IMG/VR virus record: IMGVR_UViG_3300037484_000460 | Location: 1-53,367 of that record | DNA from: a virus | Lineage: Duplodnaviria > Caudoviricetes | Reading direction: 5' to 3' (one strand) | DNA: 53,367 bases | Part shown: one piece after another, positions 5,476-53,232 of the stretch | How the letters are laid out: every line of letters starts with the position of its first letter | Position numbering within the stretch: the stretch's first letter is position 1 | Program-made: the position numbers and the translations under genes | The notes under the pieces: model-generated | The model's database searches: none | Told to the model about the DNA's origin: nothing | The model's input: the letters and a program-made list of their open reading frames with translations, nothing else

Positions 5476-7032
5476 ATGGGGGTCGCCTACACCACGCTCG
5501 CGATCGAGGCCGAGTTCGCTGGCGTCGGTGGCGGGTGGACCAACATCACCGGGGACATCCGCAACGCCAACCAGCAGATCACTGTCAGCTACGGGATCCG
5601 CGGAGGTGGCCCCACGGCACTCGTCGCAGACCAGGGCATCCTCACCATGGCCATGAACAACGTGGCCGGCGGGGTCCTCGGCTACTACGCCCCGAGCCAC
5701 GCGAGCCACCGCTCCGGGTTTGGCCTCGGTATCCGTGTCCGGCTCAGCGTGGTCTCGGGGGGCGTCACCTATTACAAGTTCTTCGGCACCATTGATTCGA
5801 TTCGGCCGGAGCCCGGGAAGCTCAACCGAATCTCCACGGTGCGCGCCGTCGATTGGATGGACGAGGCTGCGCGGTACCAAATCCAGGGGATCCCCGCATC
5901 GGTAGGCGTCCGCGCCGATCAGGTGCTCACCACGATCCTCGCGGCGATGCCGAAACAGCCGAACGCTACCAGCTTCGGCGTGGGCTCGGACACGTACCGC
6001 TACGCGCCGGCCATGGGCGGCACCGAGAAGTTCACGTTCCTGTCCGAGGCCCAGCGGTTGATGATGTCGGAGCTGGGCCTGCTCGTGATCCGGGGCGGGA
6101 CCGCGGCCGCGGCCGCGGGCACTCTCGCGTTCATCTCGCGCGGCCAACTCGTCACGAGCCCCTACAACGTGTCACAGGTGACGCTCACGGACACCATGAT
6201 CTCGCTTCCCGCGGAGATGTCGCGCGAGGCGGTGCTCAACGTGTTCCGCACCGTCACTCACCCGAACCGTGTCGACCCTCTCTCGAGCAGTGCCGTGGTG
6301 CTGTTCTCGATGCCAGAGCCGCTCCAGATCACGGGCGGCGCGGCGGCGATCACGATCCTCGGCCAGTACAGCGACCCGGCGCAGCAGGCGCAGCGCGTCA
6401 GCGGCTACGCCATGATCGGGTCAGCCGGTCAGCCCGCGATGGTCAACGGATTCGACTACTACTTCACGGCGAACCCGGACGGCACCGGGGCCGACCTCTC
6501 TGGCTCCCTGACGTTCACACCGAGCCCGGGGTCCGAGGGCGTCCGCTACGTGGTGTCGTCGAGCGTCTCTGGGTACTTCTGGGCCCAGGCACGCGGCTAT
6601 GGTCTCTACGACTACGACGCGACGGTCACAGAGAAACGGGATACCGCGAGCGTCACCGCGTACGGTGAGAGCCCGGTAGACCTCGACCTCCACTACCAGC
6701 ACGACCCCACGTTCGGTCAGAACGTCGGGCTCTATCTGCTCGCGTTCTGGAAGGATCCCAACACGCTTGTCGAGAGCGTGGGCTTCTTCGCAAACGACTC
6801 CTCGACCAACATGCTGCACGCGCTCGCGCGGGAGCCCGGGGACCGGATCACCGTCGCGGAGACGAGCACGGGTGTCAACAAGGCGTACCGCATCCAGTCG
6901 GTGGACCTGCTGTTCAAGGACAAACTGCTTTGGTGCACGTGGGGGCTTTCGCCCATGGCGGATACCACCGACTACTGGGTGCTCGAAGAGGGCGGATCGG
7001 CGCTGGGCACGAACACGGTGATTGCGTTGTGA
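5476..7032 (+). CDS. Tail tip / baseplate hub protein
   Basis: Follows the tape measure gene; AYGE..D and EPGDRITV hub-type motifs. Confidence 0.75.
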   Translation: MGVAYTTLAIEAEFAGVGGGWTNITGDIRNANQQITVSYGIRGGGPTALVADQGILTMAMNNVAGGVLGYYAPSHASHRSGFGLGIRVRLSVVSGGVTYYKFFGTIDSIRPEPGKLNRISTVRAVDWMDEAARYQIQGIPASVGVRADQVLTTILAAMPKQPNATSFGVGSDTYRYAPAMGGTEKFTFLSEAQRLMMSELGLLVIRGGTAAAAAGTLAFISRGQLVTSPYNVSQVTLTDTMISLPAEMSREAVLNVFRTVTHPNRVDPLSSSAVVLFSMPEPLQITGGAAAITILGQYSDPAQQAQRVSGYAMIGSAGQPAMVNGFDYYFTANPDGTGADLSGSLTFTPSPGSEGVRYVVSSSVSGYFWAQARGYGLYDYDATVTEKRDTASVTAYGESPVDLDLHYQHDPTFGQNVGLYLLAFWKDPNTLVESVGFFANDSSTNMLHALAREPGDRITVAETSTGVNKAYRIQSVDLLFKDKLLWCTWGLSPMADTTDYWVLEEGGSALGTNTVIAL

Positions 7033-7775
7033 GGATACGAGGCTTGCGATGGCGCGAGGCGGAAGGGCTCGTCGCGATGGAAGGCCGCCCAGATGTTGCA
7101 GCGGTGGCACGCGGCCACGAGATTCTCGGGCGAGCAGTTCAGTTTGTTGTGATCGAGGTGGTGAACGTGCAGCGGGCGTTTCAATTCGCCCTGGTGCTTG
7201 CCGCAACGCTGGCAGTGGTGTCCGTCGCGAGAGCGGATCTGCCGTTTGAGCCGTGGTGTGAAGCCCGGCCCGTACTGATTTTTACTGAGACCCCCACGCC
7301 AATTCGGATGCTTCGCCCCAGCGAAACGTCCGAGCATGTAGGCGGAGAGTTTCGCGGCGCCGCGAGCCCGGGCCTCGGCGGAGATCGGACCGAAAATCGG
7401 CTTGCCGCGGCCGATGGCGTTCTCGCGGGCCTTGGCCCGATGTGCTTCGCCATGCTTCCAGCCACGAGCCACCGGCTTCCCGGCTGCGCGATTCGTCCAA
7501 TAGGTTGCTCGCTGTTTCGCGATCCATTCTGGCTTCTGTTCCCGTCCTTTGAGGATCGCGCTGATATCCGGTCTCGGTATGCCCGTTCTACTTCCTGGGC
7601 GCCGACTTCCAAGCGCCCGCTTCGACGGTGCGTGCCCCTTCAGCCAGCGAACAGGCTTCTTGGTTCTCCCAATCGGGATGACCAGTCCTCCACAGCCACA
7701 CTCGCACGGGGCCTTGGGGAGGCCGAGTCGGTACTTAAGCCATCGTTGCTCGTGGGGACGAAGCGGCTTCGCCAC
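6972..7775 (-). CDS. HNH homing endonuclease
   Basis: CECGCG N-terminus, HPNWRGG, RDGHHCQRCG..LHVHHLDHNKLNCSPENLVAACHRCN. Confidence 0.9.
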   Translation of the reverse strand: MAKPLRPHEQRWLKYRLGLPKAPCECGCGGLVIPIGRTKKPVRWLKGHAPSKRALGSRRPGSRTGIPRPDISAILKGREQKPEWIAKQRATYWTNRAAGKPVARGWKHGEAHRAKARENAIGRGKPIFGPISAEARARGAAKLSAYMLGRFAGAKHPNWRGGLSKNQYGPGFTPRLKRQIRSRDGHHCQRCGKHQGELKRPLHVHHLDHNKLNCSPENLVAACHRCNIWAAFHRDEPFRLAPSQASYPHNAITVFVPSADPPSSSTQ

Positions 7776-7819
7776 GCTACGTATGGTACCGCGACACGCT
7801 GTCAGGGGAGGACCTAAGA

Positions 7820-8689
7820 ATGGCGTGGACCACTCCGCGTACTTTCGTTGCGGCTGAGCTTTTAACAGCTTCGATTTTCAACACTCATCTACGCGACAAT
7901 CTCAACTTCCTTAGGGACACGCTTCTAGGATCATCTGACCTCGGGAGCAACTGGAAGATCAGCAGCGGGCGGAAGCTGACCATCGCGAACGCGACGAGCA
8001 TTGTAGGTGATGCAACCGCCGTTCTCCAGGTGAGCCGAAGCGCAGCAAACGAGACCGATGGGCTACTCCTCGAGAACGCCAACGTTGGCGGCTGGGGAAA
8101 CTCGATTCGGTTCTACTCGCGCCAAAACTTCTCCGGCAACCTCATCAAGGAAGCGGCCCGGCTCATGTGTACCGGATCGGAGTCGTGGACTAGCGACGCG
8201 CTTACGTCCTCGAATTTCGAAATCCACACGATCCTCGACAACACGCTGACGAAGGCGGCCGTCTTCTCTGGGCAGGGTTTGAATGTGCCCGCTGGCCTGG
8301 GCTTGGCCGTAGGCTACACCGGGGTGCCCACTGCGGGGGCGCTCATGGTGGGAGACGCAGACTTCAAGCTGTATCTGTCCAGCGGGAACCCGACGATCCA
8401 GTTCAACTCTGCCGGCGCCGGCATCCAGTTCGATCGGAGCAACTCCCATCTCGATCTCGGAGGAGCACTCCTCGTCAATGTGGTCGCGGGGCAGCAGGGG
8501 GTGACGATTGGAAGTACCGGGACGGCCAACAACGAGGTGAGCACCATCATGATGGGAGAGCGGGCGGACCCTGCGGCTCCGGCAGCCAATTACGTTCGAA
8601 TCTACGCCAAGGACAACGGCGCCGGGAAGACCCAGCTCATGGCCATCTTCGCCGCTGGCGCTGCTCAGCAGATCGCGATTCAGCCATAG
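7820..8689 (+). CDS. Tail fibre / minor tail protein
   Basis: MAWTTPRTFVAAELLTASIFNTHLRDNL N-terminus typical of fibre anchors; Gly/Ala-rich beta sequence. Confidence 0.75.
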   Translation: MAWTTPRTFVAAELLTASIFNTHLRDNLNFLRDTLLGSSDLGSNWKISSGRKLTIANATSIVGDATAVLQVSRSAANETDGLLLENANVGGWGNSIRFYSRQNFSGNLIKEAARLMCTGSESWTSDALTSSNFEIHTILDNTLTKAAVFSGQGLNVPAGLGLAVGYTGVPTAGALMVGDADFKLYLSSGNPTIQFNSAGAGIQFDRSNSHLDLGGALLVNVVAGQQGVTIGSTGTANNEVSTIMMGERADPAAPAANYVRIYAKDNGAGKTQLMAIFAAGAAQQIAIQP

Positions 8690-8698: not shown

Positions 8699-9022
8699 GT
8701 GGTAAAGCGCATCGTGGTGTTCGATCCACCGAGCTTCGCGCTCGCGTACGAGACCTTGGCGACGTGGCAGCCAGGACCGAAGGAAGATGCGGCTGCGTCC
8801 GCGCTGGAGAAGCTCGGCCAGCATGGCGAACCCGTGCGGACCGAAAACCCGGATCTGTTCCTGCGAAAGACCGCCGATGACATCACGGTTGAGCTGCTGG
8901 AGTCCGAGAAGGATGTGCTACTCGACGCGATCCGAGCCCGCAACTGGCACACGTTCGCGCTGGCGAAGAAGCGGCGGACCGTGGAGTTGCTCACGAACGC
9001 GCAGACGGTCGAGGCTACTTGA
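8699..9022 (+). CDS. Hypothetical protein (possible fibre chaperone)
   Basis: RBS GGAGG; last gene of the late operon. Confidence 0.6.
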   Translation: MVKRIVVFDPPSFALAYETLATWQPGPKEDAAASALEKLGQHGEPVRTENPDLFLRKTADDITVELLESEKDVLLDAIRARNWHTFALAKKRRTVELLTNAQTVEAT

Positions 9023-9458
9023 GGTAGCCGACCACGTCCAGAATGACGTGGACGGATCCTCCAGGGACGCGCGCGAGCGCCACCAGATCGGCCGCGCCTT
9101 CCGGCCCCTGGCCTGTCGGAGTCAGCCTGACGATGGCCATGTTGGCGATCGTCTGCCCGGCTGAGAAGTTGAGGGTTGACGTCGGTGGGACGGATGCGAG
9201 GGGATCGAAGATGCTGAGATGCCCCGCCACAGTGCCCCCCGTCACGGTGACGTTGAGGATCACGCCGCCCGCGCCTTCGGGGACATCGCACGCGCCCTCG
9301 ATGCGAAAGAAGCGGTAGCCATCCAGGGGGCCCAGGGCGCTCTCTCGCGTGTCCACGAAGCGGCACGGCTCCACGAGGTACACCGACAAGGGCCCCACGG
9401 GAGCCGCCTCCGCGCCCACCGTCCACAGCACCAAGGCCAACCCGATCAGCGTCCGCAT
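9015..9458 (-). CDS. Secreted protein with a PCRxxDTR..LNVTV..DVVGY surface-protein domain
   Basis: Sec signal peptide MRTLIGLALVLWTVGAEA; RBS AAAGGA. Confidence 0.8.
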   Translation of the reverse strand: MRTLIGLALVLWTVGAEAAPVGPLSVYLVEPCRFVDTRESALGPLDGYRFFRIEGACDVPEGAGGVILNVTVTGGTVAGHLSIFDPLASVPPTSTLNFSAGQTIANMAIVRLTPTGQGPEGAADLVALARVPGGSVHVILDVVGYLK

Positions 9459-9459
9459 G

Positions 9460-9633
9460 TCACACGTCCTTTTCTGGAGGGATGGTCACGCCGTAGGCCG
9501 CGAACGCTCTTGCGGCCCGCTTGCCAGCACGAGCGAGTCGCCAGAACGAGAAGCGAAGACGCCAGCACTGGACGTGCAACCGCAGGCGCCACCAGCGGGC
9601 GCGGAGGACTTCCAGCGATGGGTTGGCGCTCAC
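9460..9633 (-). CDS. Hypothetical protein
   Basis: GTGA overlap with the upstream gene. Confidence 0.5.
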   Translation of the reverse strand: MSANPSLEVLRARWWRLRLHVQCWRLRFSFWRLARAGKRAARAFAAYGVTIPPEKDV

Positions 9634-9887
9634 GGCTTCTCCGCCTCGGCCACGAGCGCGGGCCAAGTACACCCAGAATAATGGACGCCACGGGTTAGGC
9701 AGCAAGGGCAAGGCGGCTTGTCTCGCCATGCGGCACGTTGTTGCACCACGGCCCTGATCAGCGCGCGGAGGCGCTCCGTTTCGTCGGAGATGCGCTTCAG
9801 CTCGACCGCCGGGAGGGTTACGCTCACCATCTCGAGCGACATGCTGACGTGGGCCGTGCCGTCGGCGTCGATCGTCTTCTCGATCAT
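9630..9887 (-). CDS. Hypothetical protein, Cys/His motif CPCC..HYSGC
   Basis: ATGA-coupled to the RHH gene. Confidence 0.65.
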   Translation of the reverse strand: MIEKTIDADGTAHVSMSLEMVSVTLPAVELKRISDETERLRALIRAVVQQRAAWRDKPPCPCCLTRGVHYSGCTWPALVAEAEKP

Positions 9888-10027
9888 CGCGCCTTCTTCC
9901 CGGCCGCCTCGCGCACGAGCCGCGCCAGGACCGCCGTCTTCGTGGTCCCCTCTCGGCGAGCCAGGGTCTCCAGCATCCGCTTGACGTCGGGGGAGAACCG
10001 GAACGAGGAGTGGGGTGTAGTGCTCAC
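9884..10027 (-). CDS. Ribbon-helix-helix (CopG/Arc-like) regulator, 47 aa, not in the ORF track
   Basis: MSTTPHSSFRFSPDVKRMLETLARREGTTKTAVLARLVREAA; directly after a sigma70 promoter. Confidence 0.8.
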   Translation of the reverse strand: MSTTPHSSFRFSPDVKRMLETLARREGTTKTAVLARLVREAAGKKAR

Positions 10028-10033
10028 GTCCTC

Positions 10034-10062
10034 AATGTACATACGTTTGTTGAGAATTGCAA
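10034..10062 (-). promoter_or_regulatory. Leftward sigma70-type promoter
   Basis: TTGCAA-17 bp-TACATT in an AT-rich gap. Confidence 0.7.
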
Positions 10063-12530: not shown

Positions 12531-13538
12531 ATGGGAACGACCGACGTGATGGTGCCACAGATGGCCGAGCCGACGCAAGCCCTCACCCCCCGTGACGTGG
12601 GCGGCGTCATGGGGCTCGCGCTCATGACCGAGCGGGAATTCGAGGCGCGGCTCGAGGCGCTCAAGACTGGCCAGGAGCGAGTCCGCCGGATCCAACGGGA
12701 TCTCATGGCCGAGGGCGAGGACTTCGGGAAGATCCCGGGGGCGCCCAAGCCCACATTGCTCAAGCCGGGCGCCGAGAAGCTGTGCGCGGTGTACGGACTC
12801 AAGGCGACGTTTCAGAAGATCGAGCGGTTGGGCGACGGCGTGACCTCGCCCCACCTGCGCATCGCCATGACGTGCCGGCTCCACCAAGGCAGCGAGGACG
12901 GCCCGGTGGTTGCCCAGGGCGAGGGCGCCGCGAACTCGTGGGAGACCAAGCACCGCTATCGCTCTGGGAAGCGCACGTGTCCCGCGTGCGGCAGCGAGGG
13001 GACCATCCGCAAGAGCAAGTACCCGGACAAGAAAACGGGCGACATCGGGTGGTGGTGCAAGGACGAAAACTGCAAAGCGAACTTCCGCTCGGATGACCCG
13101 GCGATCACCGAGCAGGTGGTTGGCACCGTGGACAATCCCGACCCATTCGACGTCGAGAACACCCTGGTAAAGATGGCGTTGAAGCGGGCGTTCATCGACG
13201 CCACGCTCCGAGCCACCGCGACCTCGGGCTTGTTCTCTCAGGATCTCGAGGACATGCAGGCCGAGGACCGAACCGAGCGTCGGCCCGCCACGCGGCCGGC
13301 TCCCGCCGGCCCTCCCCCGACCCCGCTCGAGCCCGGAGCCGACGACGGGATGACCGACCAGGAGCGCGCGGCCTACGGAAAACATGGTGTTGAGCCGCCC
13401 GTCGAGCGGACGAGTGGGGCCGCCTCCGGTGTGAATTGCCCCAAGTGCGGGACGCCCGGCAAGCCGCAGCGGTTCCAGAAGCCGGGCAAGACCCACTTCT
13501 GCCCGTCGTGCGCGTATGCCTGGGAGCCCAGCAAGTGA
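12531..13538 (+). CDS. Putative single-strand annealing/recombination protein with Zn ribbons
   Basis: DFGKIPG..KPTLLKPGAEKL and NTLVKMALKRA..SGLFSQDLED motifs; position in the early operon. Confidence 0.6.
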   Translation: MGTTDVMVPQMAEPTQALTPRDVGGVMGLALMTEREFEARLEALKTGQERVRRIQRDLMAEGEDFGKIPGAPKPTLLKPGAEKLCAVYGLKATFQKIERLGDGVTSPHLRIAMTCRLHQGSEDGPVVAQGEGAANSWETKHRYRSGKRTCPACGSEGTIRKSKYPDKKTGDIGWWCKDENCKANFRSDDPAITEQVVGTVDNPDPFDVENTLVKMALKRAFIDATLRATATSGLFSQDLEDMQAEDRTERRPATRPAPAGPPPTPLEPGADDGMTDQERAAYGKHGVEPPVERTSGAASGVNCPKCGTPGKPQRFQKPGKTHFCPSCAYAWEPSK

Positions 13539-29865: not shown

Positions 29866-29899
29866 GGGAAAAGCGACAAGCCCGGGAGGGAAATCGCAC

Positions 29900-32860: not shown

Positions 32861-32866
32861 GGGTCA

Positions 32867-35800: not shown

Positions 35801-36811
35801 GTGACGATCGCCGGAGCGCACCTATCCTCCACCCTCCAGGTCTTCCCCGGCACGCTCGCCGTCGGTGCCGTCACTGTGAGCGGCGCGCACCTGGGGAGTG
35901 GGCTTCAGCTATTCGCGCCGACCGTATCGCAGGGCGGAGCGACGCAGGATGTGACTGGCGTCCATCGGGCGTCGACCCTGGTCGTCAACGCTCCAACGCT
36001 GACCCATATTGTGGCTGGCGCCCATCTTGGACCCGCGCTCCAGGTCTTCGCCCCGACCCTGTCTCATGCCGCCGTGGGGGCGCACGTCTCCAGCGCGTTC
36101 CAGGTGTTCGCGCCGGCCTTGGCGTACCGGATCGTCGGTGCCCACGTTGCCTCTACTCTCCAGACGTTCACGCCGACAACCGCGTACCGCGTTGCGGGCG
36201 CGCATCGGACGAGCGCCCTCCAGGTCTTTGCTCCAACCGTCTCGACGTTCGGCACGATCAGCGGCGCCAACGTGCCGAGCACCCTCCAGCTCTTCTCAGG
36301 TACGGCGTCCGCCGGGCCGGTCGCGGTCCAGGGGGCGCACGTCTCGAGCAGTCTTGCGGTCTTCTCGCCGAGTGTGTCGCGCACCGTCGCCGGTGCGCAC
36401 CTGGGCTTAACGCTCCAGCTCTTCGCGCCCAGCACCATCTATCGCGTCTCCGGGGCGCACGTAGGCCCGACGCTCACGCTGTTCGCTCCGACGATCACGA
36501 CCTTTGGAACGATCGCGGGAGCGCACGCCCCTAGCACGCTTCAGCTCTTCGCGCCAACGGTCACGCCTGCGTCGTGGCCGATCGTAGGCGCGCACTCGGG
36601 CTCGACCCTTGTCGTGTTCACCCCGACGCTAGGCTACGTGGTAGCTGGAGCGCATCGGGGGCCGATGTTGCAGGTCTTCTCGCCGACTGTGTCCGGCGGG
36701 ATCCAGTACCTCGTGATCTCCCAGCCCGGTGCGGGGAGCCACGGCACGTCGTTGGGTGAGAGTCGGACGAGTTCCGCCCTCAACGGAAGTCGGAACTCGA
36801 CAGAAATATAA
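32867..36811 (+). CDS. Large virion adhesin/fibre with a DUF4038 (apiosidase-like) hydrolase, a collagen-binding-like domain and 19 shaft repeats
   Basis: NGRYLEDQRSIPFLVNGTAVW, VWLNGGD, KPTIFLETDYE, WFNTRTGE; repeats GAHxxSxLQxFxP. Confidence 0.8.
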   Translation: MAAPTVRGVGAFGSGTTSFVAAVPTGGSAPQAGDAMYIVMESSDSTTAAGTPTTPTDWTKLFENTVGAGATGVTTLTIFGKIAGASEANVTVSGVGNHCAGAMIVIAGHGLAHITATVVGEPTDNGTGTTGRTISSINGPADSLIIGAIGLSDDANDTTNMSNVANANLTGLTEHIDQTVSTGAGGGVCIHTGACAGTSSGSTTWDHDTAERAQSVHLGVPPTGVSPRLIQKAGGTADNTTSVVVAYPADVVTGDLLVIAVVKYSPSDDAFVVGDISKSAGTATLGSFTLDQNVNFDFQASSDRMAGAIYSAPVTAGGSCTITVGGAVAGSFLVMSVSEWEGLDTGASRLEDSDTGTGASGAPATATATSAGAALFAGIVLTNYAVVTTHTPGADYNTLFESEDGATHATGSAEYRVVTAGTTDAADWVAPTTSDYACALAVYKAATAAQEVTGAHLASTFQTFAPSIVGEGAVAGAHVASALQLFPPTLRYAAVGTFLASTLQLFSPVVQHTPAWPLRASTNGRYLEDQRSIPFLVNGTAVWSLTHNLTLSEATNVLDRLKAKGLNSVIVSAPDSFDESGTPSDPVSDDKQGNQPFTSNDLTQPIEAYWSHVDDVLDACKARNFLVYFTPLYLGFSDTEGFRDVLASNSVANATTYGEFLGTRYGGLGNLVWLNGGDVAPTTWASKVRAIQDGIISTASVSMPHATHWGPDENPWDFTTDFAESRFQIHNVYTYNPVGNRTNDSYNHSPTKPTIFLETDYEGAGGDDIWAEPYRAMFSGAMGHFSGNIPLWYCGDNNGGWSAALDSTGFTRLAHLWELFNARQWWKLVPSRDGALMTSGNGNPDLDSGCQGALTADQKLAMIFFPSQLTVTVDLTAVDALGAGSSIQADWFNTRTGEVTSDGSYGVTGTHNFTPPSSSSEFVLVLTSDVPPATDSSATGAHRASSLQLFAGTLRHVVVGVHRASTLQLFAPTVAPGAVTIAGAHLSSTLQVFPGTLAVGAVTVSGAHLGSGLQLFAPTVSQGGATQDVTGVHRASTLVVNAPTLTHIVAGAHLGPALQVFAPTLSHAAVGAHVSSAFQVFAPALAYRIVGAHVASTLQTFTPTTAYRVAGAHRTSALQVFAPTVSTFGTISGANVPSTLQLFSGTASAGPVAVQGAHVSSSLAVFSPSVSRTVAGAHLGLTLQLFAPSTIYRVSGAHVGPTLTLFAPTITTFGTIAGAHAPSTLQLFAPTVTPASWPIVGAHSGSTLVVFTPTLGYVVAGAHRGPMLQVFSPTVSGGIQYLVISQPGAGSHGTSLGESRTSSALNGSRNSTEI

Positions 36812-40664: not shown

Positions 40665-42134
40665 ATGGCCAACGTCACCACGCAACATCCCGAGTACGCG
40701 AGCATGGCCGCCTTCTGGTCGCGATGCCGTGACCTCATCGAGGGGTCCGACACCGTGAAGCGGGGGTCGGCCTACGACCCGCTCGGAAGGTCTTACTCAT
40801 ACCTCCCGACGCCGCCCGGCATGAGCGCCCAAGACTTCGAGTTTTACAAGGCCCGCGCTCAGTTTTTCAACGCGATGGCGCGGACCGTGACGGCTCTCTC
40901 GGGTGCCGTGTTCACGAAGCCACCGACGGTCGAGTGTCCTGACGAGACGAAGGTGCAACTCGAAGACCTGACATCGCAGGACGAGCCGCTTGACGTTGTG
41001 GCTCAGAAGATCGTCACCGAAGTCATTTCGGTCGGGCGCGTCGGGGTGTTCTTGGAGATGCCGGAGAAGGCCCCGGCCGGTACACCGCCCTACTGGGCGA
41101 TGCGCTTGGCCCAAAACATCACGAACTGGCGCACGGCCAGGGTCGGCGACGATCCGGCGAAGCTTGTGCTCGTGGTGATTGCCGAGGAGGCGGAGGCCCC
41201 GGACGAGTTCGGCCACGACTGCGTGACTCAGTACCGACAGCTTGCGCTGGTCGATGGCAAGTATCAGGTGCGCGTGTGGACCCGGAAGGACACCGGAACG
41301 AAGACGGCCGAATACGAGCCGGGCGAGTGGATCGTTCCGATGAGGCGTGGCGTTGCGCTTGATTTCATTCCCTTCACCTTCGTCGGAATCGACGGGGTGT
41401 CGCCTTGCGTGTCGAAGCCGCCGCTTCTGGACCTGGCCAACGTGAACGTCGGGCACTTCCGCAACTCCGCGGATCACGAGCAGGGCTTGTTCAATACGGC
41501 GATACCGACGTACTTCGCGGCGGGCATGACCGCCAACAGCACGCCGTTGAAGGTAGGTGGGTCCGCGGCGTGGATGCTGCCGCAGGGCGCGACGGCCGGC
41601 GTGCTGGAGTTCTCGGGCGCAGGAATGAAGGCGATCCTCGACGCGATGACCGCGAAAGAGAAACAGATGGCAAGCCTCGGAGCACGCCTCCTCGAAGACC
41701 CGAGCGCGAATGCTGCGGAGACGGCAACGGCTGTGCGGATGCGCCACAGCGGCGAAGGTGCCGCGTTGCGCACGATCGCGGGCGCCGGTTCCACGGCGCT
41801 GACCACGCTCTTGCGGTGGCACGCTTGGTGGGCCGGTACGGGGGGGATCGACCAGTCGATCAAAGTCGCGCTCGCCCAGGAGTTCTCGAACATCCGTGCG
41901 ACGCCGGAAGAGGTGAAGGCGCTCGTGCTTCAAGTCCAAGCCGGGTTGATCGGGTACGAGACGTTCTACGCCAATCTCCAGAAGGGTGGCTGGACACGCG
42001 AGGGCGTCAGCGCGGCAGAGGAGCTGAAGGCGATCGAGGCCGAGGAGCCGATGCGGCCCGAGCCGCCCGAGCCCACGCCACCGAAGCCGGGGGATCCGCC
42101 GATGCCGATGCCCCCCAACCCGGCGGTGGCGTGA
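40665..42134 (+). CDS. Portal protein (DUF4055 type)
   Basis: Follows terL; HPEY..W..CRD..EG, KPPLLDLANVNVGHFRNSAD, LGARLL. Confidence 0.9.
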   Translation: MANVTTQHPEYASMAAFWSRCRDLIEGSDTVKRGSAYDPLGRSYSYLPTPPGMSAQDFEFYKARAQFFNAMARTVTALSGAVFTKPPTVECPDETKVQLEDLTSQDEPLDVVAQKIVTEVISVGRVGVFLEMPEKAPAGTPPYWAMRLAQNITNWRTARVGDDPAKLVLVVIAEEAEAPDEFGHDCVTQYRQLALVDGKYQVRVWTRKDTGTKTAEYEPGEWIVPMRRGVALDFIPFTFVGIDGVSPCVSKPPLLDLANVNVGHFRNSADHEQGLFNTAIPTYFAAGMTANSTPLKVGGSAAWMLPQGATAGVLEFSGAGMKAILDAMTAKEKQMASLGARLLEDPSANAAETATAVRMRHSGEGAALRTIAGAGSTALTTLLRWHAWWAGTGGIDQSIKVALAQEFSNIRATPEEVKALVLQVQAGLIGYETFYANLQKGGWTREGVSAAEELKAIEAEEPMRPEPPEPTPPKPGDPPMPMPPNPAVA

Positions 42135-42218
42135 TGGTGACCGTGGGTCAGTTAGAAGTGGTGCTTCGACTAAGGGACGAGGTGACGCCTCTATTCGGGA
42201 ACTATATACATGACTTCC

Positions 42219-42404
42219 CTAGCTAGCCTTGATGGTGCGGGGAGCCCGTTCCGGAAAATGACACGAACACTGGCACCACTCGCGCCCGTCCGCCGTCGAT
42301 GTCCAGGTACCGAGGCCGTAGTAGGCGTCGTGGCAGTCGCGCTCACGGCCGACGCCCTTGACTCCACAGAAGCAAGACGGAGCCTCCTTAGCTCTTTGCG
42401 GCAT
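42219..42404 (-). CDS. IS passenger, small Cys-rich protein
   Basis: CFCG..CQCSCH. Confidence 0.5.
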   Translation of the reverse strand: MPQRAKEAPSCFCGVKGVGRERDCHDAYYGLGTWTSTADGREWCQCSCHFPERAPRTIKAS

Positions 42405-42519
42405 CGCGCTTCGTCCTCCTCGCCCGTCTCTTCGCGGCCTTCGTCTTCGGCTTCGGACGGTAGGCGAGAACCACGTCGGTTATCCGGTCGAGCGTTGATG
42501 GTACTCGTGGCTTTCTCAT
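42388..42519 (-). CDS. Small basic protein coupled to the transposase
   Basis: ATGA overlap; MRKPRVPSTLDRITDVVLAYRPKPK.. Confidence 0.65.
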   Translation of the reverse strand: MRKPRVPSTLDRITDVVLAYRPKPKTKAAKRRARRTKRDAAKS

Positions 42520-43451
42520 GCGGTCAGCCTCTTGTAAGTGATGCGGCGGCCCACGGTTCCGTCCACGAAACTGTCCAGGCGGTCCAAGGTGTGACGCGCC
42601 ACGTTGCCAGCGTTCAGGCGGAACGTGAACTCGTCCACATAGCGGTGGAGATGCTTCCGGCTGGCGTGGTGGTAGACGCCATGAAGACCGCGCTTCAGGA
42701 CGGCCCAGACGCTCTCGATTCCGTTGGTGTGGGCGTCCCCTCGGACGTACTCCTTAGCGGAGTGGTTGACCGTCTGGTGCCGGAAGAACAGGCCGTCCAG
42801 GTCGGAGTAGCCGGCGTGCTCGTCGGTGTAGAGGTTGGCCCCGACTTCCACGGCGGCGTGTACAACGCTCTGGAGCGTGTTAACCGAGCGATCAGGAACC
42901 GGAAAGGCGAGCGTCCGGCCGCCACGTTCGCGGAGTCCAACCACGGCGACTTTGCCGACGCCACCACGACCGGCATGGAGCCGCTTGTGCTCGTGCTTGT
43001 TGGCTTCCTTGCCGCCGATGAAGCACTCGTCAACCTCCACGTCCCCGCCGAGCTTGCCGCCCCCGGCCAGAGGGTCCGAGCCGCATGCCTCGCGGAGCCT
43101 CTGGAGCATGAACCATGCGGTCTTCTGAGTGACGCCGATCTCCTTTGCCATCTGGAGAGACGAGACGCCCTTGCGGGCCGTTACGAGCAGGTACATGGCA
43201 TAGACCCACTTGTGGAGTGGGACATGCGACCGCTCGAAGATGGTTCCGGTTCGGACGGTGAACGTGTAGTCGTTCGGGCAGGCGTTACAGCGGTAGAAGC
43301 CGGCCTTGCGTGGCGTGATCCGCTCTCCCGACTTGCACTCAGGGCAGATGGGACCGGCTGGCCAGAGACGGCCCTCCAGATACAGGCGGCCCGATTCTGC
43401 GTCCGGGAACCGCTCGAAGAGTTGGAAGGTGCTGATCGTGCTTCGACTCAT
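42516..43451 (-). CDS. tnp: IS1595-family DDE transposase
   Basis: Zn ribbon CPEC..C..C, VEVDE, LYTDE, HTNGIESVW, YVDEFTFRLN. Confidence 0.95.
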   Translation of the reverse strand: MSRSTISTFQLFERFPDAESGRLYLEGRLWPAGPICPECKSGERITPRKAGFYRCNACPNDYTFTVRTGTIFERSHVPLHKWVYAMYLLVTARKGVSSLQMAKEIGVTQKTAWFMLQRLREACGSDPLAGGGKLGGDVEVDECFIGGKEANKHEHKRLHAGRGGVGKVAVVGLRERGGRTLAFPVPDRSVNTLQSVVHAAVEVGANLYTDEHAGYSDLDGLFFRHQTVNHSAKEYVRGDAHTNGIESVWAVLKRGLHGVYHHASRKHLHRYVDEFTFRLNAGNVARHTLDRLDSFVDGTVGRRITYKRLTA

Positions 43452-43454
43452 GAG

Positions 43455-43835
43455 TTACCCCTCCGCCCGAGCAATCGCGGCCAAAGCGAGCGGGATGTCC
43501 ATCTCTGCCTGGAGCAGTGGATAGCCAGCCGAGAGCGATACGATCCGCTTGAGGGCTTCCAGCAGTTCCGGAGCGGCGGCAATCAGCCGCGCGTCGGCTT
43601 CAGAGCTTGCGTCATGCCTCGCCCGCTCTGGATGTCTCTCGATGATGTCGGCGTCACCAAGACCTCCGGCCAGCCACGCAATCAGCTTCCCCGGCGGATG
43701 CTTTGCTCCACATTGGCACGGCCCGTCAAATGTCGGGTTTTCGACGGTGTAGTGGGCCGATCCGGTATCACGATAGTTAGGGCGCACGCTAAAGGTCCAA
43801 GGCCCGGGGGTGTGTCTCACAGTGAAATCCTCCAT
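43455..43835 (-). CDS. IS passenger, phage-type HTPGPW..ARLIAAAPELLEAL protein
   Basis: Characteristic motifs. Confidence 0.8.
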   Translation of the reverse strand: MEDFTVRHTPGPWTFSVRPNYRDTGSAHYTVENPTFDGPCQCGAKHPPGKLIAWLAGGLGDADIIERHPERARHDASSEADARLIAAAPELLEALKRIVSLSAGYPLLQAEMDIPLALAAIARAEG

Positions 43836-43838
43836 GGC

Positions 43839-44078
43839 CTAGCGCCGGCCGAGGGCGATGAAGCCGTCACGGGTAACTGCGTTGCCGTGTGGGTCCGTGA
43901 TCGTCCAAATACGGAACCCCATGACATCCACCTCGGCCGCGTCACAGGCCGACCAGCCGATGGATTGAGCCGCCTTTTCCGCCTCCCGGCGGCTCCCGAA
44001 CTGGATGATGACCCTAGAGTGGGCCGGCGGCAGGGGCCGGGTGGTGTCGATGGCTTGCAGGTACATGTCGCGCTTCAT
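43839..44078 (-). CDS. IS passenger, hypothetical protein (probably leaderless)
   Basis: ATG 6 nt after the -10 box. Confidence 0.7.
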   Translation of the reverse strand: MKRDMYLQAIDTTRPLPPAHSRVIIQFGSRREAEKAAQSIGWSACDAAEVDVMGFRIWTITDPHGNAVTRDGFIALGRR

Positions 44079-44084
44079 GCACTC

Positions 44085-44113
44085 AATATACATCACTCCC
44101 CCGGGGATGTCAA
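44085..44113 (-). promoter_or_regulatory. IS promoter with its -35 box inside the terminal IR
   Basis: TTGACA-17 bp-TATATT. Confidence 0.85.
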
Positions 44114-44274
44114 GTATATAATTCCCCTCTATTTGAGGCGGCCATCCGAAGCGCCACGGCTGCGCGACCCGCGTGTGGTTCTGGCGTGGCCATCGCCGCC
44201 GGCCTCGCTGCGGCAACGCAGAGCAAGCGGCCAGTGTCCCGCCGTGGCCTCTTCATGTTCTGGAGACGTCGTCG

Positions 44275-44550
44275 ATGATCCGCCTTTTCCTCTACGCCCT
44301 CGCTGCGGTCCTGGTCGTGCCCTTCCTCGTGGGCCTCGTGATCGGGATGTGCGTGCCCCTGGCCATCGGGCCGGTCCGCCGCCGGCTCATGGCCCATGCC
44401 GAGGCGATACGCTCGACGGAGAAGCGGCTAGACGCCGCCGCCGACCCGGGCAAGATCATCATGGACCCGTGGTACCGAACCGCGCAGGCCGCCCTCCGTG
44501 ACGCGAAGCGTCGCTACGATTTCCCGCCCGACGCCGGAGGTGAGTCGTGA
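44275..44550 (+). CDS. Membrane protein
   Basis: Hydrophobic N-terminus; GGAG RBS. Confidence 0.6.
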   Translation: MIRLFLYALAAVLVVPFLVGLVIGMCVPLAIGPVRRRLMAHAEAIRSTEKRLDAAADPGKIIMDPWYRTAQAALRDAKRRYDFPPDAGGES

Positions 44551-45427: not shown

Positions 45428-45792
45428 AACCCGATCGGTCCGAGATGGGGTTTGATGGGAACGTGGTCCTCGTGTTCGACGCCGAGCGCACGCGACTGCC
45501 CATGTCGGAGCCCGACGCACAAGGTCGCCGAAGTGTGTTCACGACGTGCTGCGATTGCGGGCTCGTCCACGAGTTCGAGATAGGCCCGGACTACGTGACC
45601 GCAGTGCGCGCGCCCGACGACGTGGCCAAGAACATCCGGGCGACCGTGCTTGCCAAGAACCCCGAGTACTTCCCACTGCGACGGGAGAAAGAAAAGGGCG
45701 GGGGTGCGCGCCCCCGCCCCGTGGAGCCTGACCCGCCTGGGCAGCGTGCGGCTCCGTCCCGGGCGGATTGTAGCACCGGAGGCGTGGCGTGA
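45424..45792 (+). CDS. Hypothetical protein (CCDCGLVH motif)
   Basis: GTGA overlaps at both ends. Confidence 0.6.
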   Translation: MKPDRSEMGFDGNVVLVFDAERTRLPMSEPDAQGRRSVFTTCCDCGLVHEFEIGPDYVTAVRAPDDVAKNIRATVLAKNPEYFPLRREKEKGGGARPRPVEPDPPGQRAAPSRADCSTGGVA

Positions 45793-47285
45793 TCTTCCGC
45801 TTTGATGGCGAGAACCTCGCCGCCCAGCGCGCCGCGGAGCGGGCCGCCGCCGCCATGGTGACCGGGATCTCCGAGCAGACGCGGGCGGCCCTGCGCACCC
45901 TGATCGTGCGCGCCATCCGCGAGGGGATCCCCCCCTACGACGCAGCGCGGATGATCGTCAGCATGATCGGCCTCACCGAGCAGCAGGCCGGCGCGGCCAT
46001 GAGCTACCGGGAGCAGCTCATCAACGAGGGGCTCTCCTTCGATCGCATCAACGTCCTCGTGGACCGCTACTCGGCGAAGCTCCTGCGCCAGCGGTCGGTC
46101 ACGATCGCTCGGACGGAATGCTTACCCGCGGAGACTCTTGTTGATGCAGCTGTGGTGCGGGCAGTCCACCGAAGGCCGTTTAAGGGGCGCATGGTGGAAG
46201 TCCGCACCGGTGACGGCCGCAAGTTCACCGCAACCCCGAATCACCCAATGCTTACGCACCGAGGATGGGTTGCGGCGGGCCTCTTGGATGCAGGCGACCA
46301 CTTGATCTGCTGCCGCAGACAGCAGAAGCCGAGTCCGCCGAGAGACGAAAACGTAGCACGTCCACCAACCACGCTCGGCGAGATATTCGACGCGGCTTCG
46401 GCAGTAGGGATCATCGAGCGGCGAGGTTGTGGAAAGCCAGACTTCCACGGCGACGGGGTAGATGGCGAGGTCGAGATTGCGCGACCCAACCGGGCGTTGA
46501 TGTTCGGGAACTTCTCCCCGCTCGATGAGCCAACGCTCAAGGAGATCCTCTCCCCAACCGATCTTTCGGCTTTTCCCTTTTGCCCGACGTGTCGCCGACT
46601 GCTGGAGATCGATCAGACGCCGTGCCTCTGCAACGGTGCGTTGGCGGACCCCGCTCTTGGCGAGCCTTTTGTAGACGACGCGAGCCGACACGCCCAGGGA
46701 TTGGGCAATCCTCTTGGCCGGTTCTCCGGCGAGGTAGCGCTTGACGACCGGGCCAGCCTGGATGTCTGCGCGGTACGCGGGGCTCTCGCCCCCGCGATCA
46801 AAGAACGCACCGCGAGCATCGCTCCGAGAGCGCATGGCTCCCGCTCGCCGAACCGCCCCATGGATGGCGTCCCTACCACGACCGGTTGTTTGCGCGATGG
46901 CGGCAATGCTGAGGCCCGAGCGGTAAAGCTCGACCGCGTGACGAGCGTCGTTGTCTTCCAGTGGGCTGGTCATGTGTTCAACCTTTCTACCATGGACGGG
47001 TATTTTACCATCAATGACGGAATGGTGACAGGGAACACCATGAGCGCCCTCAACCGGGGCGCACTCGAAGCGTACGGCCAGGCGCAGCAGAAGGGCCTGC
47101 TCTCGGGTGATGCGGTCAAGGAGTGGATTTCGACCCCCGATGAGCGGGCATGTCCGGTATGCCTGCCTCTCGATGGCGTCACCGTCCCGCTCAAGGCGAT
47201 GTTCGCGACCGCCAACGGGCCCTTGCCGGGTCCGGTAGCACATCCGCGGTGCAGGTGCGCGATCGCAGTCCTGGACCCCTTGTGA
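45789..47285 (+). CDS. Minor head protein (MuF/SPP1 gp7-like) containing an intein
   Basis: TIARTE..KEWIST.DERACPVC..HPRCRC. Confidence 0.9.
   Translation: MIFRFDGENLAAQRAAERAAAAMVTGISEQTRAALRTLIVRAIREGIPPYDAARMIVSMIGLTEQQAGAAMSYREQLINEGLSFDRINVLVDRYSAKLLRQRSVTIARTECLPAETLVDAAVVRAVHRRPFKGRMVEVRTGDGRKFTATPNHPMLTHRGWVAAGLLDAGDHLICCRRQQKPSPPRDENVARPPTTLGEIFDAASAVGIIERRGCGKPDFHGDGVDGEVEIARPNRALMFGNFSPLDEPTLKEILSPTDLSAFPFCPTCRRLLEIDQTPCLCNGALADPALGEPFVDDASRHAQGLGNPLGRFSGEVALDDRASLDVCAVRGALAPAIKERTASIAPRAHGSRSPNRPMDGVPTTTGCLRDGGNAEARAVKLDRVTSVVVFQWAGHVFNLSTMDGYFTINDGMVTGNTMSALNRGALEAYGQAQQKGLLSGDAVKEWISTPDERACPVCLPLDGVTVPLKAMFATANGPLPGPVAHPRCRCAIAVLDPL
46122..46973 (-). CDS. Antisense intein-nested gene: two HTH repeats plus a Vsr/DUF559-like nuclease domain (283 aa)
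   Basis: YRSGLSIAAIA.., YLAGEPAKRIAQSLGVSARVV; EDLLERWL..G..Q..VG..LDLAI..VAVEV..LAERGW; RBS AAAGGT. Confidence 0.8.
   Translation of the reverse strand: MTSPLEDNDARHAVELYRSGLSIAAIAQTTGRGRDAIHGAVRRAGAMRSRSDARGAFFDRGGESPAYRADIQAGPVVKRYLAGEPAKRIAQSLGVSARVVYKRLAKSGVRQRTVAEARRLIDLQQSATRRAKGKSRKIGWGEDLLERWLIERGEVPEHQRPVGSRNLDLAIYPVAVEVWLSTTSPLDDPYCRSRVEYLAERGWWTCYVFVSRRTRLLLSAAADQVVACIQEARRNPSSVRKHWVIRGCGELAAVTGADFHHAPLKRPSVDCPHHSCINKSLRG
47002..47010 (-). promoter_or_regulatory. Extended -10 promoter for the antisense nuclease gene
   Basis: TGGTAAAAT about 28 nt upstream of the ATG at 46973. Confidence 0.55.
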
Positions 47286-50920: not shown

Positions 50921-51439
50921 ATGGCGCTCGTCCTAGACGCAACCGCGGGGGGCGCCGCCGCGAACTCATACGCAACGGTGGCCGAAGCCGGCGACTATCA
51001 CCTGGGCCACCTCTACGCTTCGGCGTGGACCGGCGCCAGCGCTGCCACCAAGGACGCAGCGCTCGTCATGGCCACACGGCTCCTGGACACCCTCGTGGAA
51101 TGGGATGGCTGGGTGGTCACCGAGACGCAGGCGTTGTTGTGGCCACGGTCGGGGATGCTCTACCGCAACGGCTATTCGGTGCCGAGCAACGTGGTGCCGA
51201 TCGACCTGAAACGGGCTACATCGGAGCTGGCCCGGCTACTCATCGTCGCTGACCTCACGGCTGAGAGCGACGTCGAAAACCAGAAGCTCAAGGCTCTGAC
51301 CGCAGGCCCGGTCAGGCTCGAATTTGGGGATGGCGTCACCGTCAAACGTATCCCCGATTCGGTGTGGGCGCTCCTGCCGCCTGGCTGGGGCCTAGTGCGA
51401 TCGCGCGACAACGGGATGCGCGCAACGGTGCGGGCATGA
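50921..51439 (+). CDS. Head-tail adaptor (DnaT-like family)
   Basis: ANSYATVAEA..ATRLLD..QALLWPR..VP..LK.A..ELA. Confidence 0.85.
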   Translation: MALVLDATAGGAAANSYATVAEAGDYHLGHLYASAWTGASAATKDAALVMATRLLDTLVEWDGWVVTETQALLWPRSGMLYRNGYSVPSNVVPIDLKRATSELARLLIVADLTAESDVENQKLKALTAGPVRLEFGDGVTVKRIPDSVWALLPPGWGLVRSRDNGMRATVRA

Positions 51440-51444
51440 GCGCC

Positions 51445-51678
51445 CTACTCGTCGCCCTCGCGCCGTCTGCCCGGCGATCGGATCGGCGTGGGCCTGCGCG
51501 GCGGCTTTCGCTCTGCGGCCTCGGCCCCTTCCTCGAAGATGTCGGCGGCCTCGAGCAGCGCGGCTCGCACGGGCTCGGCGTTCTTCATGGCCAGGTCGCG
51601 AAGGACCTGTGCCAGCTCCCGGCGAAGACGTGCGACCACGCCGGGGACGTCCTCGATTTTGACGCTCGCCGTAATCAC
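51445..51678 (-). CDS. Small antisense hypothetical protein
   Basis: Amphipathic helical sequence filling the gap between neck genes. Confidence 0.55.
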   Translation of the reverse strand: MITASVKIEDVPGVVARLRRELAQVLRDLAMKNAEPVRAALLEAADIFEEGAEAAERKPPRRPTPIRSPGRRREGDE

Positions 51679-51715
51679 GTGCTTCCGCGGCGGGAAGCGC
51701 AGAGGGCGGTCTGAC

Positions 51716-52120
51716 ATGGGCCTCCAGGATCTCATCCGGTCCGGTGTCGCCACCGCCAACGGTATCACGGAGGAGCTTCAGGTGGCCGTGACTCACGAAC
51801 CGTGGGTAGGCAAGGACCAGTACGGGGGGCCAGTCTTCGGGACGCCCGTGAGCCGTCAGGCTCTCGTCGAGATGAAGCAGCGGCTTCGCCGATCCTACAC
51901 CGGCCAGGAGGTGATGCAGATGGCGGCGGTCACGTTCCTGGTCCCGGTGGAGCCGAACGGTGCCGCCGGCCGCCGCGAGCCGATCGACCCGCGCGACCGC
52001 ATCACGCTCCCGGACGGTACCACGGGGCCCATCCTCGACGCCGCCGGACTCGCTGATCCGGACACCGCGAACCCCTACTTCCAGGTCGTTGCCCTGGGTG
52101 GAGCGACCCTTGTCACTTGA
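51716..52120 (+). CDS. Head closure protein
   Basis: DQYGGPVFG..IDPRDRITLPDG. Confidence 0.8.
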   Translation: MGLQDLIRSGVATANGITEELQVAVTHEPWVGKDQYGGPVFGTPVSRQALVEMKQRLRRSYTGQEVMQMAAVTFLVPVEPNGAAGRREPIDPRDRITLPDGTTGPILDAAGLADPDTANPYFQVVALGGATLVT

Positions 52121-52124: not shown

Positions 52125-52481
52125 ATGGACAAGCTTCGCGCTGCCTTCGAAGTCATCCAACGGAAGCTCGCCCTCGGCGCCGCTCTCTACCAGGAGGGCC
52201 TCTACATCCAGCGCAACTCGATGCGGCGGACGCCGGTGGACACCGGCGCGCTGCGTGCGAGCCACGAGACCACGGAGCCCACCTTCAAGGGCGGCGAGAT
52301 CGAGGTGGCGATCCAGGTTGGTGGCCCCGCGGCTCCGTACGGATTCATTATCCACGAAAGGCTTGATCTGAATCATCGAGTCGGCGAGGCCAAGTTCTTA
52401 GAACGGTCCGTGACTGAAGCTGCTGGCGGATTCGCGGAACGCCTCGGACGTCGCGTAGCGAAGAATCTGGGGGTTGGCTAG
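52125..52481 (+). CDS. HK97 gp10-like neck protein
   Basis: TPVDTGALRAS..APYG..IHE..AKFLE. Confidence 0.85.
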   Translation: MDKLRAAFEVIQRKLALGAALYQEGLYIQRNSMRRTPVDTGALRASHETTEPTFKGGEIEVAIQVGGPAAPYGFIIHERLDLNHRVGEAKFLERSVTEAAGGFAERLGRRVAKNLGVG

Positions 52482-52783
52482 TGCGCTACCGCGAATGCTC
52501 CAGGCGTCATGATTCGGCACCCCTTCCGCAGATTACACGCGGGATGCGTGGGCCGGATGTTCTCGAAGAAGTGGCCCCCGCATCGCTTCAGCGGGCTCTT
52601 GGCTCGTTCGAGCAGCACTTCGCGGATTCGATCACAGCGGGCTCGCGAATTGGCCGACGACTTTCGGGATTGGCCGATCTTCCCGCAGAGCTTCGAGCAA
52701 TAGCGAGTCTTGCCGACACGGCAAGGGAACACCGCGAAGGGTGTGCCACACGTCTCACAGGGCGTCTGAACCTTCGCGCTCAA
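52478..52783 (-). pseudogene. Internally deleted HNH endonuclease remnant
   Basis: CETCG..RYCSKLC N-terminus joined to GGH..ENIRPTHPACNLRKG; first half of the HNH motif is missing. Confidence 0.7.
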
Positions 52784-52827
52784 CCGCTATTGTTCTATCA
52801 CCCCGCCTTGCCCCAGCAGGTCCGCGC

Positions 52828-53232
52828 ATGGGCGTGTTGAGCGAAGTGGCTGCCAAGCTCGCCGCCCTCGGGGTCGGCACCGTGGGAACCGACATTTTCC
52901 TGGGGGCGATGCCCGAGGACGTGGCCGCGTGCTGCGCGCTGTACGAGTACGGTGGCAGCGCGCCGGAGTTCGCGCTCGGGGCTCCGGGGGTCGCGTTCGA
53001 GAACCCCTCGGTCCAGGTGGTCTTTCGTGGGACGCCACACGACTACGCGGGCCCGCGCGCGAAAGCTGAGACCGCGTATCGGGGCCTGGCCGCCGTTGAG
53101 GCCACGGCGCTGAGCGGCACGTTCTTTCACTGGATTCACCCGATGCAGTCGCCGTTCTTGCTGCGCCGCGACGAGTCGGAGCGCGTCCTCATCGCTACAA
53201 ACTACGCCTGCCAGAAGGAGCCCTCGGCATGA
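52828..53232 (+). CDS. Tail terminator (minor capsid family)
   Basis: DIFLGAMP..YEYGG..PSVQVVFRG..QSPF..RDE..R. Confidence 0.8.
   Translation: MGVLSEVAAKLAALGVGTVGTDIFLGAMPEDVAACCALYEYGGSAPEFALGAPGVAFENPSVQVVFRGTPHDYAGPRAKAETAYRGLAAVEATALSGTFFHWIHPMQSPFLLRRDESERVLIATNYACQKEPSA

Follow-up and report, generated by a model that had tools for sequence, protein, structure and literature searches.

Translational coupling is the termination and reinitiation of ribosomes at overlapping stop and start codons, such as ATGA and TGATG. In the complete IMG/VR virus record IMGVR_UViG_3300037484_000460 (53,367 bases with direct terminal repeats; hereafter the window) we studied five sense open reading frames (ORFs), here called bridges B1 to B5, each in codon register with a gene of the opposite strand. 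Like coupled cistrons, four of the bridges start on NTGA or TAGTG, and comparable sense ORFs at a locus of other phages, which is marked by antisense DUF982 genes, overlap their neighbours at both ends. Unlike the usual coupled cistron, a bridge seems to encode nothing conserved, it covers genes of the other strand, and it is known here from sequence alone.

The bridges also resemble the shadow ORFs of high-GC genomes, being codon-aligned opposite a real gene, richer in GC at the first than at the third codon position (GC1>GC3) and without any family match. They differ from ordinary shadow ORFs in a stop density about 12-fold lower, which is confined to the aligned frame and dependent on gene orientation, and in ends that meet the neighbouring stop and start codons and are conserved across diverged loci (B2 with its counterpart in the related genome G001, and the DUF982 locus). 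According to two previous studies, untranslated stretches within operons expose RNA to Rho (PMC12360218, PMC7858274). An antisense insert of 0.3-2.3 kb would be such an untranslated stretch; the differences from Rho polarity are that an untranslated gap of 248 nt is tolerated in the late region here, and that the role of Rho in the window is one that we infer. There is also a likeness to in-frame mobile insertions such as inteins: this genome has an in-frame insertion of ~1 kb in a Mu-F-like gene, and the cassette under B1 (257×3) preserves phase. Unlike an intein, a bridge does not interrupt a gene but sits between two, no splicing is involved, and the mobile gene reads from the other strand. 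Passages of PMC2988022 state that an invading homing endonuclease must minimise its impact on surrounding genes to persist, and describe segD of phage T4 as one antisense homing endonuclease gene with terminators up- and downstream; for free-standing homing endonucleases these passages mention neither a spanning sense ORF nor stop avoidance, both of which are features of the bridges here. No prior description of such bridging turned up in our literature searches or in these passages.

Anatomy of the bridges and stop codons in the aligned frame

The bridges are codon-aligned sense frames opposite an HNH gene, three promoter-bearing morons, an IS1595 unit with its passengers, a small gene and an HNH-like ORF. 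All five had been predicted by a first-pass annotation of this DNA, and all are in the ORF list:

7029-7817, + strand: bridge B1, over the HNH gene
28957-29910, + strand: bridge B2, over the three moron genes
42210-44501, + strand: bridge B3, 763 codons, over the IS1595 island
51436-51714, + strand: bridge B4, over the small gene
52481-52840, + strand: bridge B5, over the HNH-like ORF

The translations matched no family in Pfam (0/5). For B4, tblastn gave no match, and protein searches of curated phage records with both strands were uninformative. The composition of the bridges is that of a shadow frame, with GC1/2/3 of 0.69/0.56/0.65 in B1 and GC1 of 0.85 against GC3 of 0.68 in B2.

The boundary strings were as the first-pass annotation gave them. 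B1 opens on GTG 7029 within TTGTGA (upstream stop 7030-7032) and closes on TAA 7815-7817, followed by ATG 7820; B2 runs from ATG 28957 in ATGA to TAA 29908-29910, which sits inside the CGT AAG codons of the gene at 29900-31918; B4 runs from ATG 51436 in ATGA to TGA 51712-14, followed by ATG 51716; and B5 runs from GTG 52481 in TAGTG to TGA 52838-40. The start overlaps or abuts the upstream stop in 4/5 bridges, the exception being B3 (ATG 42210, TGA 44499-44501). The annotation had also put the stops near the next start, and B1 and B4 do end just before it; for B2 and B5 the next gene truly begins at 29900 and 52828, respectively, so these two bridges stop 10-12 nt inside it. The frames of B1 (open from 6669), B2 and B4 reach back beyond the "coupled" starts and have their first in-frame start codons at 6930, 28924 and 51364, so that the "coupled" starts are internal ones. 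B3, whose frame is open from 42186, was thought to start inside a truncated upstream gene; it does end in a downstream gene, but the portal is full-length and the supposed truncated gene is a relic ORF (42134-42226). The antisense genes within B2 and those within B3 share one frame each, codon-aligned with the bridge, in agreement with the alignment claimed for eleven antisense genes, some of which proved shorter (29617-29829, 43839-44078) and some doubtful (42219-42404, 44110-44397). A leftward operon had been singled out as lacking a bridge, and this was confirmed:

9015-10042, - strand: leftward operon used as control, three frames with 3 shadow-stop codons and no spanning sense ORF

The shadow-stop codons are antisense CTA, TTA and TCA. 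Only these put a stop in the aligned sense frame, so it is the cheapest frame to keep open; GTA, ATA, CCA, GCA and ACA served as sibling codons for comparison. The window has a GC content of 63-68%, and its ordinary sense genes carry 0.0062 CTA, TTA or TCA per codon; a fully open aligned shadow frame lies opposite 15/49 ordinary genes and 0/8 genes of at least 400 codons. The embedded antisense genes of the window hold 1 shadow-stop against 12.8 expected (GC3-matched), or against 11.0 expected when conditioned on A-ending codons. In the window, G001 and a third genome, G004, taken together, the ratio of shadow-stop to sibling codons was 1:53 in embedded antisense genes, 365:1295 in major-strand genes (Fisher P=5.8e-5) and 19:50 in leftward operons (P=1.1e-4). 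Stops in the aligned opposite frame amounted to 0.0006 per codon in embedded genes against 0.0075, which is ~12-fold lower, and the other two opposite frames were normal (0.026/0.035 vs 0.020/0.033 stops per codon). GC content alone does not account for the bridges. Two other causes of the depletion were excluded, namely strand mutation bias or a shortage of A at third positions, since conditioning on A-ending codons still gave 1 against 11.0, and host-adapted lysogenic expression, since the leftward operons had normal rates.

Recurrence in other phages

The observation is more than chance because it was replicated in other phages. G001, whose portal is 63% identical to that of the window, has a homologous moron island with the same promoter. 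The sense ORF across it resembles B2, starting on ATGA at a different upstream gene and ending at the same CGT AAG stop, and the island content differs. The boundaries of the B4 ORF are not conserved in G001.

Antisense HNH genes lie inside a sense operon in G004, G411 and L119, and the aligned frame is fully open in each; the gene of G411 represents a second HNH family (phrog_1872 at 1e-30). The HNH gene of the window, 39% identical to that of G004 over 238 aa, has 0 CTA, TTA or TCA in 267 codons. A contrast by orientation, planned in advance, set the independent genes of G004, G411 and L119 against three co-oriented homologues. Shadow-stops occupied 0/561 codons of the antisense HNH genes and 10/710 codons of the co-oriented ones (one-sided Fisher P=0.0029; P=0.011 against sibling codons), and the aligned frame was open in 0/3 co-oriented homologues.

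The DUF982 island was found in TerL relatives of ~49% identity, ~7 kb upstream of TerL, in 12 loci that form 10 clusters at 80% nucleotide identity. To judge by their ids, several of these records appear to derive from isolate genomes. Over 1,429 codons the aligned sense frame of the island contains no stop, where ~9.5 would be expected from leucine and serine usage, and the other two sense frames have 25 and 61. The sense ORF overlaps its neighbours on both sides, at the upstream stop and at the next ATG, in 10/12 loci, and its length follows the island content, from 123 to 366 codons. The antisense ORFs match Pfam DUF982 (E≈1e-16) and weakly a solved structure (2kpq), whereas the sense ORFs match no family or structure and their product is poorly conserved (70.7% identity in the antisense frame vs 43% in the sense frame). 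A search of curated phage records with the DUF982 gene gave no match. These results support the view that something keeps the aligned frame open over embedded antisense genes: the depletion is frame-specific, it is orientation-dependent in the HNH genes, and the DUF982 frame is open across 10 diverged lineages.

Genes and elements under and around the bridges

The antisense features under the bridges are as follows.

6972-7775, - strand (B1): HNH endonuclease gene; Pfam HNH_3 at 28.4 bits vs a cutoff of 24.8, full-length homologue in G004
29617-29829, - strand (B2): moron m1; ATG 7 nt past the -10 hexamer
29272-29556, - strand (B2): moron m2; GC3 0.93
29011-29271, - strand (B2): moron m3; GC3 0.94, 73% identity over 30 aa to a G001 gene, abuts m2 in frame
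29837-29865, - strand (B2): leftward promoter-like site TTGACA-17-TATATT, 11/12; 85% conserved in G001 (3049-3077, reverse-complement coordinates)
42516-43451, - strand (B3): IS1595-family transposase; DDE_Tnp_IS1595 E=1.5e-45, N-terminal Zn_ribbon_IS1595 E=5.6e-7
43455-43835, - strand (B3): passenger g2; phrog_1273 E=6.6e-15, in frame with the transposase
43839-44078, - strand (B3): passenger g3; ATG 6 nt past the -10 hexamer
44085-44113, - strand (B3): leftward promoter-like site TTGACA-17-TATATT, 11/12
42186-42219, no strand (B3): left terminal inverted repeat of the mobile unit, including the B3 ATG
44104-44149, no strand (B3): right terminal inverted repeat of the mobile unit
51445-51717, - strand (B4): conserved small gene; homologues in G001 (45%, 60 aa) and L170/G412 (36%, 50 aa)
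52478-52783, - strand (B5): weakly HNH-like ORF; phrog_1271 E=4.9e-4, BLASTP E=0.02 to the HNH of the window

Of the 267 residues of the HNH protein, homology covers those up to about 245; its gene runs, for its final ~21 codons and its stop, through the antisense of the 3' end of the upstream gene, and the inserted cassette spans ~7036-7806. By sequence reading the cassette is ~771 nt (257×3), and the phase of a pre-existing GTG…TAA mini-frame is kept. Antisense HNH ORFs continue into the antisense of the upstream gene's 3' end by 61 nt in the window (6972-7035) and by 21 nt in G004 (64526-64546). At the site of the HNH gene, G001 has a sense ORF of 140 aa coupled at both ends (32578-33000, reverse-complement), which is probably an ordinary sense gene, with GC3 of 0.79 above GC1 of 0.74 (longer ORF from 32488). 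The HNH search of curated phage records gave one weak, unannotated match, and a scan with the family alignment returned the copy of G004 itself and one weak match, nothing more; searches of 4 genomes and of 401 genomes of one class did not find the family, a result that says nothing about absence.

The three B2 morons have GC3 of 0.84-0.94. The antisense cassettes of B2 and B3 each carry a sequence-predicted promoter of their own, the criterion for a moron; 0/100 shuffles reached 3 matches, and a terminator search in both islands found none. The antisense ATGs 6-7 nt downstream of these sites suggest leaderless moron transcripts. Consecutive antisense genes abut in the same frame, stop then ATG or with one codon between, at 29271/29272, 43451-43455 and 43835-43839 and in G001 at 2801/2802 (reverse-complement).

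The inverted repeats of the IS1595 unit (42186-44149) are imperfect and ~35 nt long, and no flanking direct repeat or target duplication was seen; a third copy of ATATAC(A/T)T(G/C)AC makes a palindrome with the right repeat. Compared with L002, the inserted DNA is 42137-~44274, exceeding the inverted repeats by 50 nt and 125 nt, and at the empty site of L002 (3700-3709) portal and next gene meet in a TGATG stop/start overlap. The relic in the window derives from this junction:

42134-42226, + strand: relic ORF of 30 codons, opening at the displaced next-gene ATG that overlaps the portal stop (TGATG), from comparison with L002

Within the ranges searched, the closest bacterial copies of the insertion sequence had no terminal repeats, and passenger g2 had no homologue among 80 bacterial insertion-sequence loci. 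The closest transposase homologues, on bacterial chromosomes L006, L007, L008 and L010, lie opposite antisense ORFs of 372-598 codons although their GC3 is only 0.66-0.74. The long antisense ORF is shared by L007 and L008 at 75% nucleotide identity; it may represent a genuine antisense gene or else an adaptation of the element.

The homologues of the small B4 gene in G001 and L170/G412 keep its position and orientation. Its start and that of the connector diverge and overlap in the palindrome CATG (51715-51718), leaving zero intergenic space. Compared with G001 and G412, the B5 antisense ORF is inserted DNA, and there is no gap at the site in G001 or L170. IMG/VR scans with the adaptor Ad1, the 7820 protein, the 30068 protein and the S8 protease gave no usable close relative, so that no uninserted version of the B2, B4 or B5 site is to be had from that source.

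Near-identity searches of curated phage records gave no near relative of the window, whose capsid protein shares 41% identity with the capsid protein of SSP002-like siphophages. The layout was assigned by family searches (Pfam, PHROG):

442: tail tube, and 2770: tape measure, late genes continuing across the record ends
5476-7032, + strand: protein in distal-tail position, 5' of B1; ends TTG TGA
7820-8689, + strand: gene 3' of B1, with its own Shine-Dalgarno site (GGGGAGGA)
10136: integrase
29900-31918, + strand: gene 3' of B2, with lipoprotein-like N-terminus MLRKSFVLVALLALPAC and Shine-Dalgarno site GGGAGGG; start from the G001 alignment
39202: TerL
40665-42134, + strand: full-length portal; phrog_145 (PHROG 145) E=6e-124, profile positions 7-475 of 493
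44275-44550, + strand: displaced gene 3' of B3, with its own Shine-Dalgarno site (GGAGA); B3 ends within it
45789-47285, + strand: Mu-F-like head protein (Pfam Phage_Mu_F) with an in-frame, intein-like insertion of ~1 kb
48430: capsid
50921-51439, + strand: head-tail adaptor Ad1, 5' of B4; phrog_477 E=4e-32
51716-52120, + strand: head-tail connector, 3' of B4; phrog_3881
52125-52481, + strand: Neck1 / tail-completion gene, 5' of B5; phrog_5
52828-53232, + strand: tail terminator, 3' of B5; PF12691 E=1.9e-14, true start ATG 52828 by N-terminal alignment with G001

The Mu-F insertion matches Intein_splicing at E=3e-5 and 24.2 bits, below the cutoff of 35.8, and L002 (5434-5518) lacks it. Sense genes are tightly packed through overlaps of 4 nt or 1 nt: the start of the next gene overlaps 28/72 sense stops in the window and 156/396 in the five genomes examined; in five related genomes the next gene is in frame -1 in 224/375 adjacent pairs. 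Three proteins of the late region may be host-surface enzymes, a subtilase-domain protein (26757-28550), the lipoprotein-like 672-aa protein with a Pro/Thr-rich linker (29900-31918) and a 1,314-aa protein with apiosidase-like and collagen-binding-like domains (32867-36811).

Explanations for the open frames

The explanation we prefer, which we hold at a little under even confidence from the sequence comparisons, is that selection, or the survival of insertions only when they come in open and in frame, keeps the sense frame open for translation across the inserts. Ribosomes leaving an upstream late cistron would re-initiate at the overlapping or nearby start (NTGA, TAGTG), cross the antisense segment and terminate at or just within the next cistron. 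The act of translating would matter and the product would not; ribosome cover on the late mRNA would protect it from Rho-type premature termination or decay, and the ribosomes would be handed on. Translation of the bridges, and an anti-polarity benefit through avoidance of Rho, are what we infer.

Several results weigh against this explanation. The window was flagged post hoc in a very large scan and its statistics are hypothesis-generating data, so its P-values alone are not decisive; likewise, the DUF982 locus was singled out after its zero counts had been seen. We surveyed the antisense-call islands of 61 TerL-related loci (n=88), and 60/88 were not spanned, 7 of them homology-validated. 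Twelve homology-validated antisense genes had 13 shadow-stops vs 8.6 expected, that is, no depletion, and in the close relative G412 the aligned frame is broken by 3 stops over a 675-aa antisense gene and by 1 over another island. The first-pass claim that insertions persist only if bridged has therefore to be abandoned; the phenomenon is real and recurrent (HNH, DUF982, G001), but not universal. Strict start overlap was seen in 4/5 islands of the window vs 12.2% expected per island (P=0.001), but among 9 independent islands it was seen in 2/9 (P=0.30), as by chance. In L143, which is 92% identical over the end of the gene upstream of B1, the HNH gene is absent and the junction reads CTG TGA GGAGGGCCATC TAA ATG, a five-codon mini-frame; therefore, the GTGA start and the TAA-before-ATG of B1 predate the HNH insertion. 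The first-pass annotation had rested its case on boundary placement and not on ORF length; these two results point in the opposite direction: ORF openness, rather than boundary placement, is the statistically unusual feature. B3 is uncoupled at both ends, with its ATG within the inverted repeat and its stop inside the next gene, and L002, 87-96% identical, lacks the entire IS1595 island as well as the intein-like insert. Among 73 bacterial IS1595 transposase homologues open antisense frames are common (4/8 of the closest, 4/15 at GC3 of at least 0.8), so the length of B3 is largely an intrinsic trait of the element. The genes 3' of B1, B2 and B3 have their own Shine-Dalgarno sites, so that start coupling is not strictly needed, and the late region tolerates its untranslated gap of 248 nt. 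One antisense call of the survey (G411 12984-13505, - strand; L250 18086-18607, + strand) was rejected as the shadow of a real methyltransferase, the apparent bridge there being this enzyme's own gene.

The automated survey is unreliable for small antisense calls; those at G003 36207 and G004 28036 are probably longer sense genes instead. PHROG and Pfam gave no significant match for ten large antisense calls, one of which (L182) had two weak Pfam matches below cutoff. A score-margin filter was biased to genes with shadow-stops, and the "excess" seen with it was not relied on. The methyltransferase shadow ORF of L250 and G411 matches phrog_38519 ("unknown function", E=2e-7), a family that may have been built from spurious antisense translations. 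Among the spanning ORFs 11/28 were coupled at both ends, 10 of the 11 at the DUF982 locus, and 24.5% of ordinary sense genes are coupled in this way.

The bridges might instead be chance shadow ORFs with inherited junction motifs: at 66% GC the aligned antisense frame is often open, NTGA is ubiquitous where genes overlap by 4 nt, compact spacing puts a stop near a start, and the window was picked post hoc. The GC1>GC3 composition agrees with this, as do the 15/49 ordinary genes with fully open aligned shadow frames, the overlapping start present at 88/240 unused sense stops, the B1 motifs already at the L143 empty site, start coupling of 2/9 in independent islands, the 60/88 unbridged islands and the 13 vs 8.6 shadow-stops of validated genes in the broad sample. 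We nevertheless consider chance unlikely in view of the frame-specific depletion against sibling codons (P≈6e-5), the contrast between antisense and co-oriented HNH genes in independent data (P=0.003), the 1,429 stop-free codons of the DUF982 locus, spread over 10 diverged lineages with two-sided overlaps in 10/12 loci, and the G001 replica of B2.

Open antisense frames could also be an intrinsic trait of the imported elements (the IS1595 unit and HNH), left by their codon style or by element-level adaptation, with no selection exerted by the phage. Zero shadow-stops in 4/8 of the closest bacterial transposase homologues (GC3 0.67-0.74, antisense ORFs of 372-598 codons) and open frames in 4/15 at GC3 ≥0.8 speak for this; the B3 frame is open between both inverted repeats in an island absent from a close relative, the transposase taken alone has the stop frequency expected from its own codon usage, and the aligned frame is open in both of two antisense HNH genes that share 39% identity. 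The open frames of B3 and B5 may be owed to intrinsic codon style or chance. As a general account it is rather improbable, given that co-oriented HNH homologues are open in 0/3, that resident antisense genes (the B2 island, B4, DUF982) are not recent imports, yet are bridged, and that leftward-operon genes have normal rates.

Least probable, and in our judgement quite doubtful, is that the spanning ORFs are genuine protein-coding genes overlapping antisense genes (dual coding) and selected for their product: the two-sided 4-nt overlaps at the DUF982 locus do look like those of real genes (11/28 spanning ORFs vs 24.5% of ordinary genes), and PMC8850804 reports long antisense-overlapping ORFs as translated in a high-GC bacterium, but no bridge has a family or structure match, the composition is that of a shadow frame, the DUF982 sense translation is less conserved than the antisense one (43% vs 70.7%), the length of the sense ORF merely tracks island content (123-366 codons), and B1 and B3 were born from recent insertion of foreign DNA.

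If translation across antisense inserts is not the cause, the bridges caution that an architecture of 4-nt overlaps and high GC alone can yield gene-like coupling and long ORFs. If it is, these comparisons would suggest, as a proposal that is possible though short of probable, that phage operons hold a class of "bridge ORFs" whose product is meaningless and which are kept stop-free and start/stop-coupled over antisense genes embedded in the operon (homing endonucleases, morons, DUF982 genes), so as to hold the ribosomes on the mRNA throughout, and that antisense mobile genes carry a measurable signature of CTA/TTA/TCA avoidance, from which the strand translated across them could be told. There would then be a new constraint on mobile genes settling in phage operons, in which orientation and reading phase count beside the insertion site, and some shadow ORFs now discarded or miscalled by annotators would have a function. 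The comparison of CTA, TTA and TCA with their sibling codons would give a signal, readable from sequence, of translation across antisense genes, and the old question of how far operon expression depends on unbroken ribosome cover would become directly testable.

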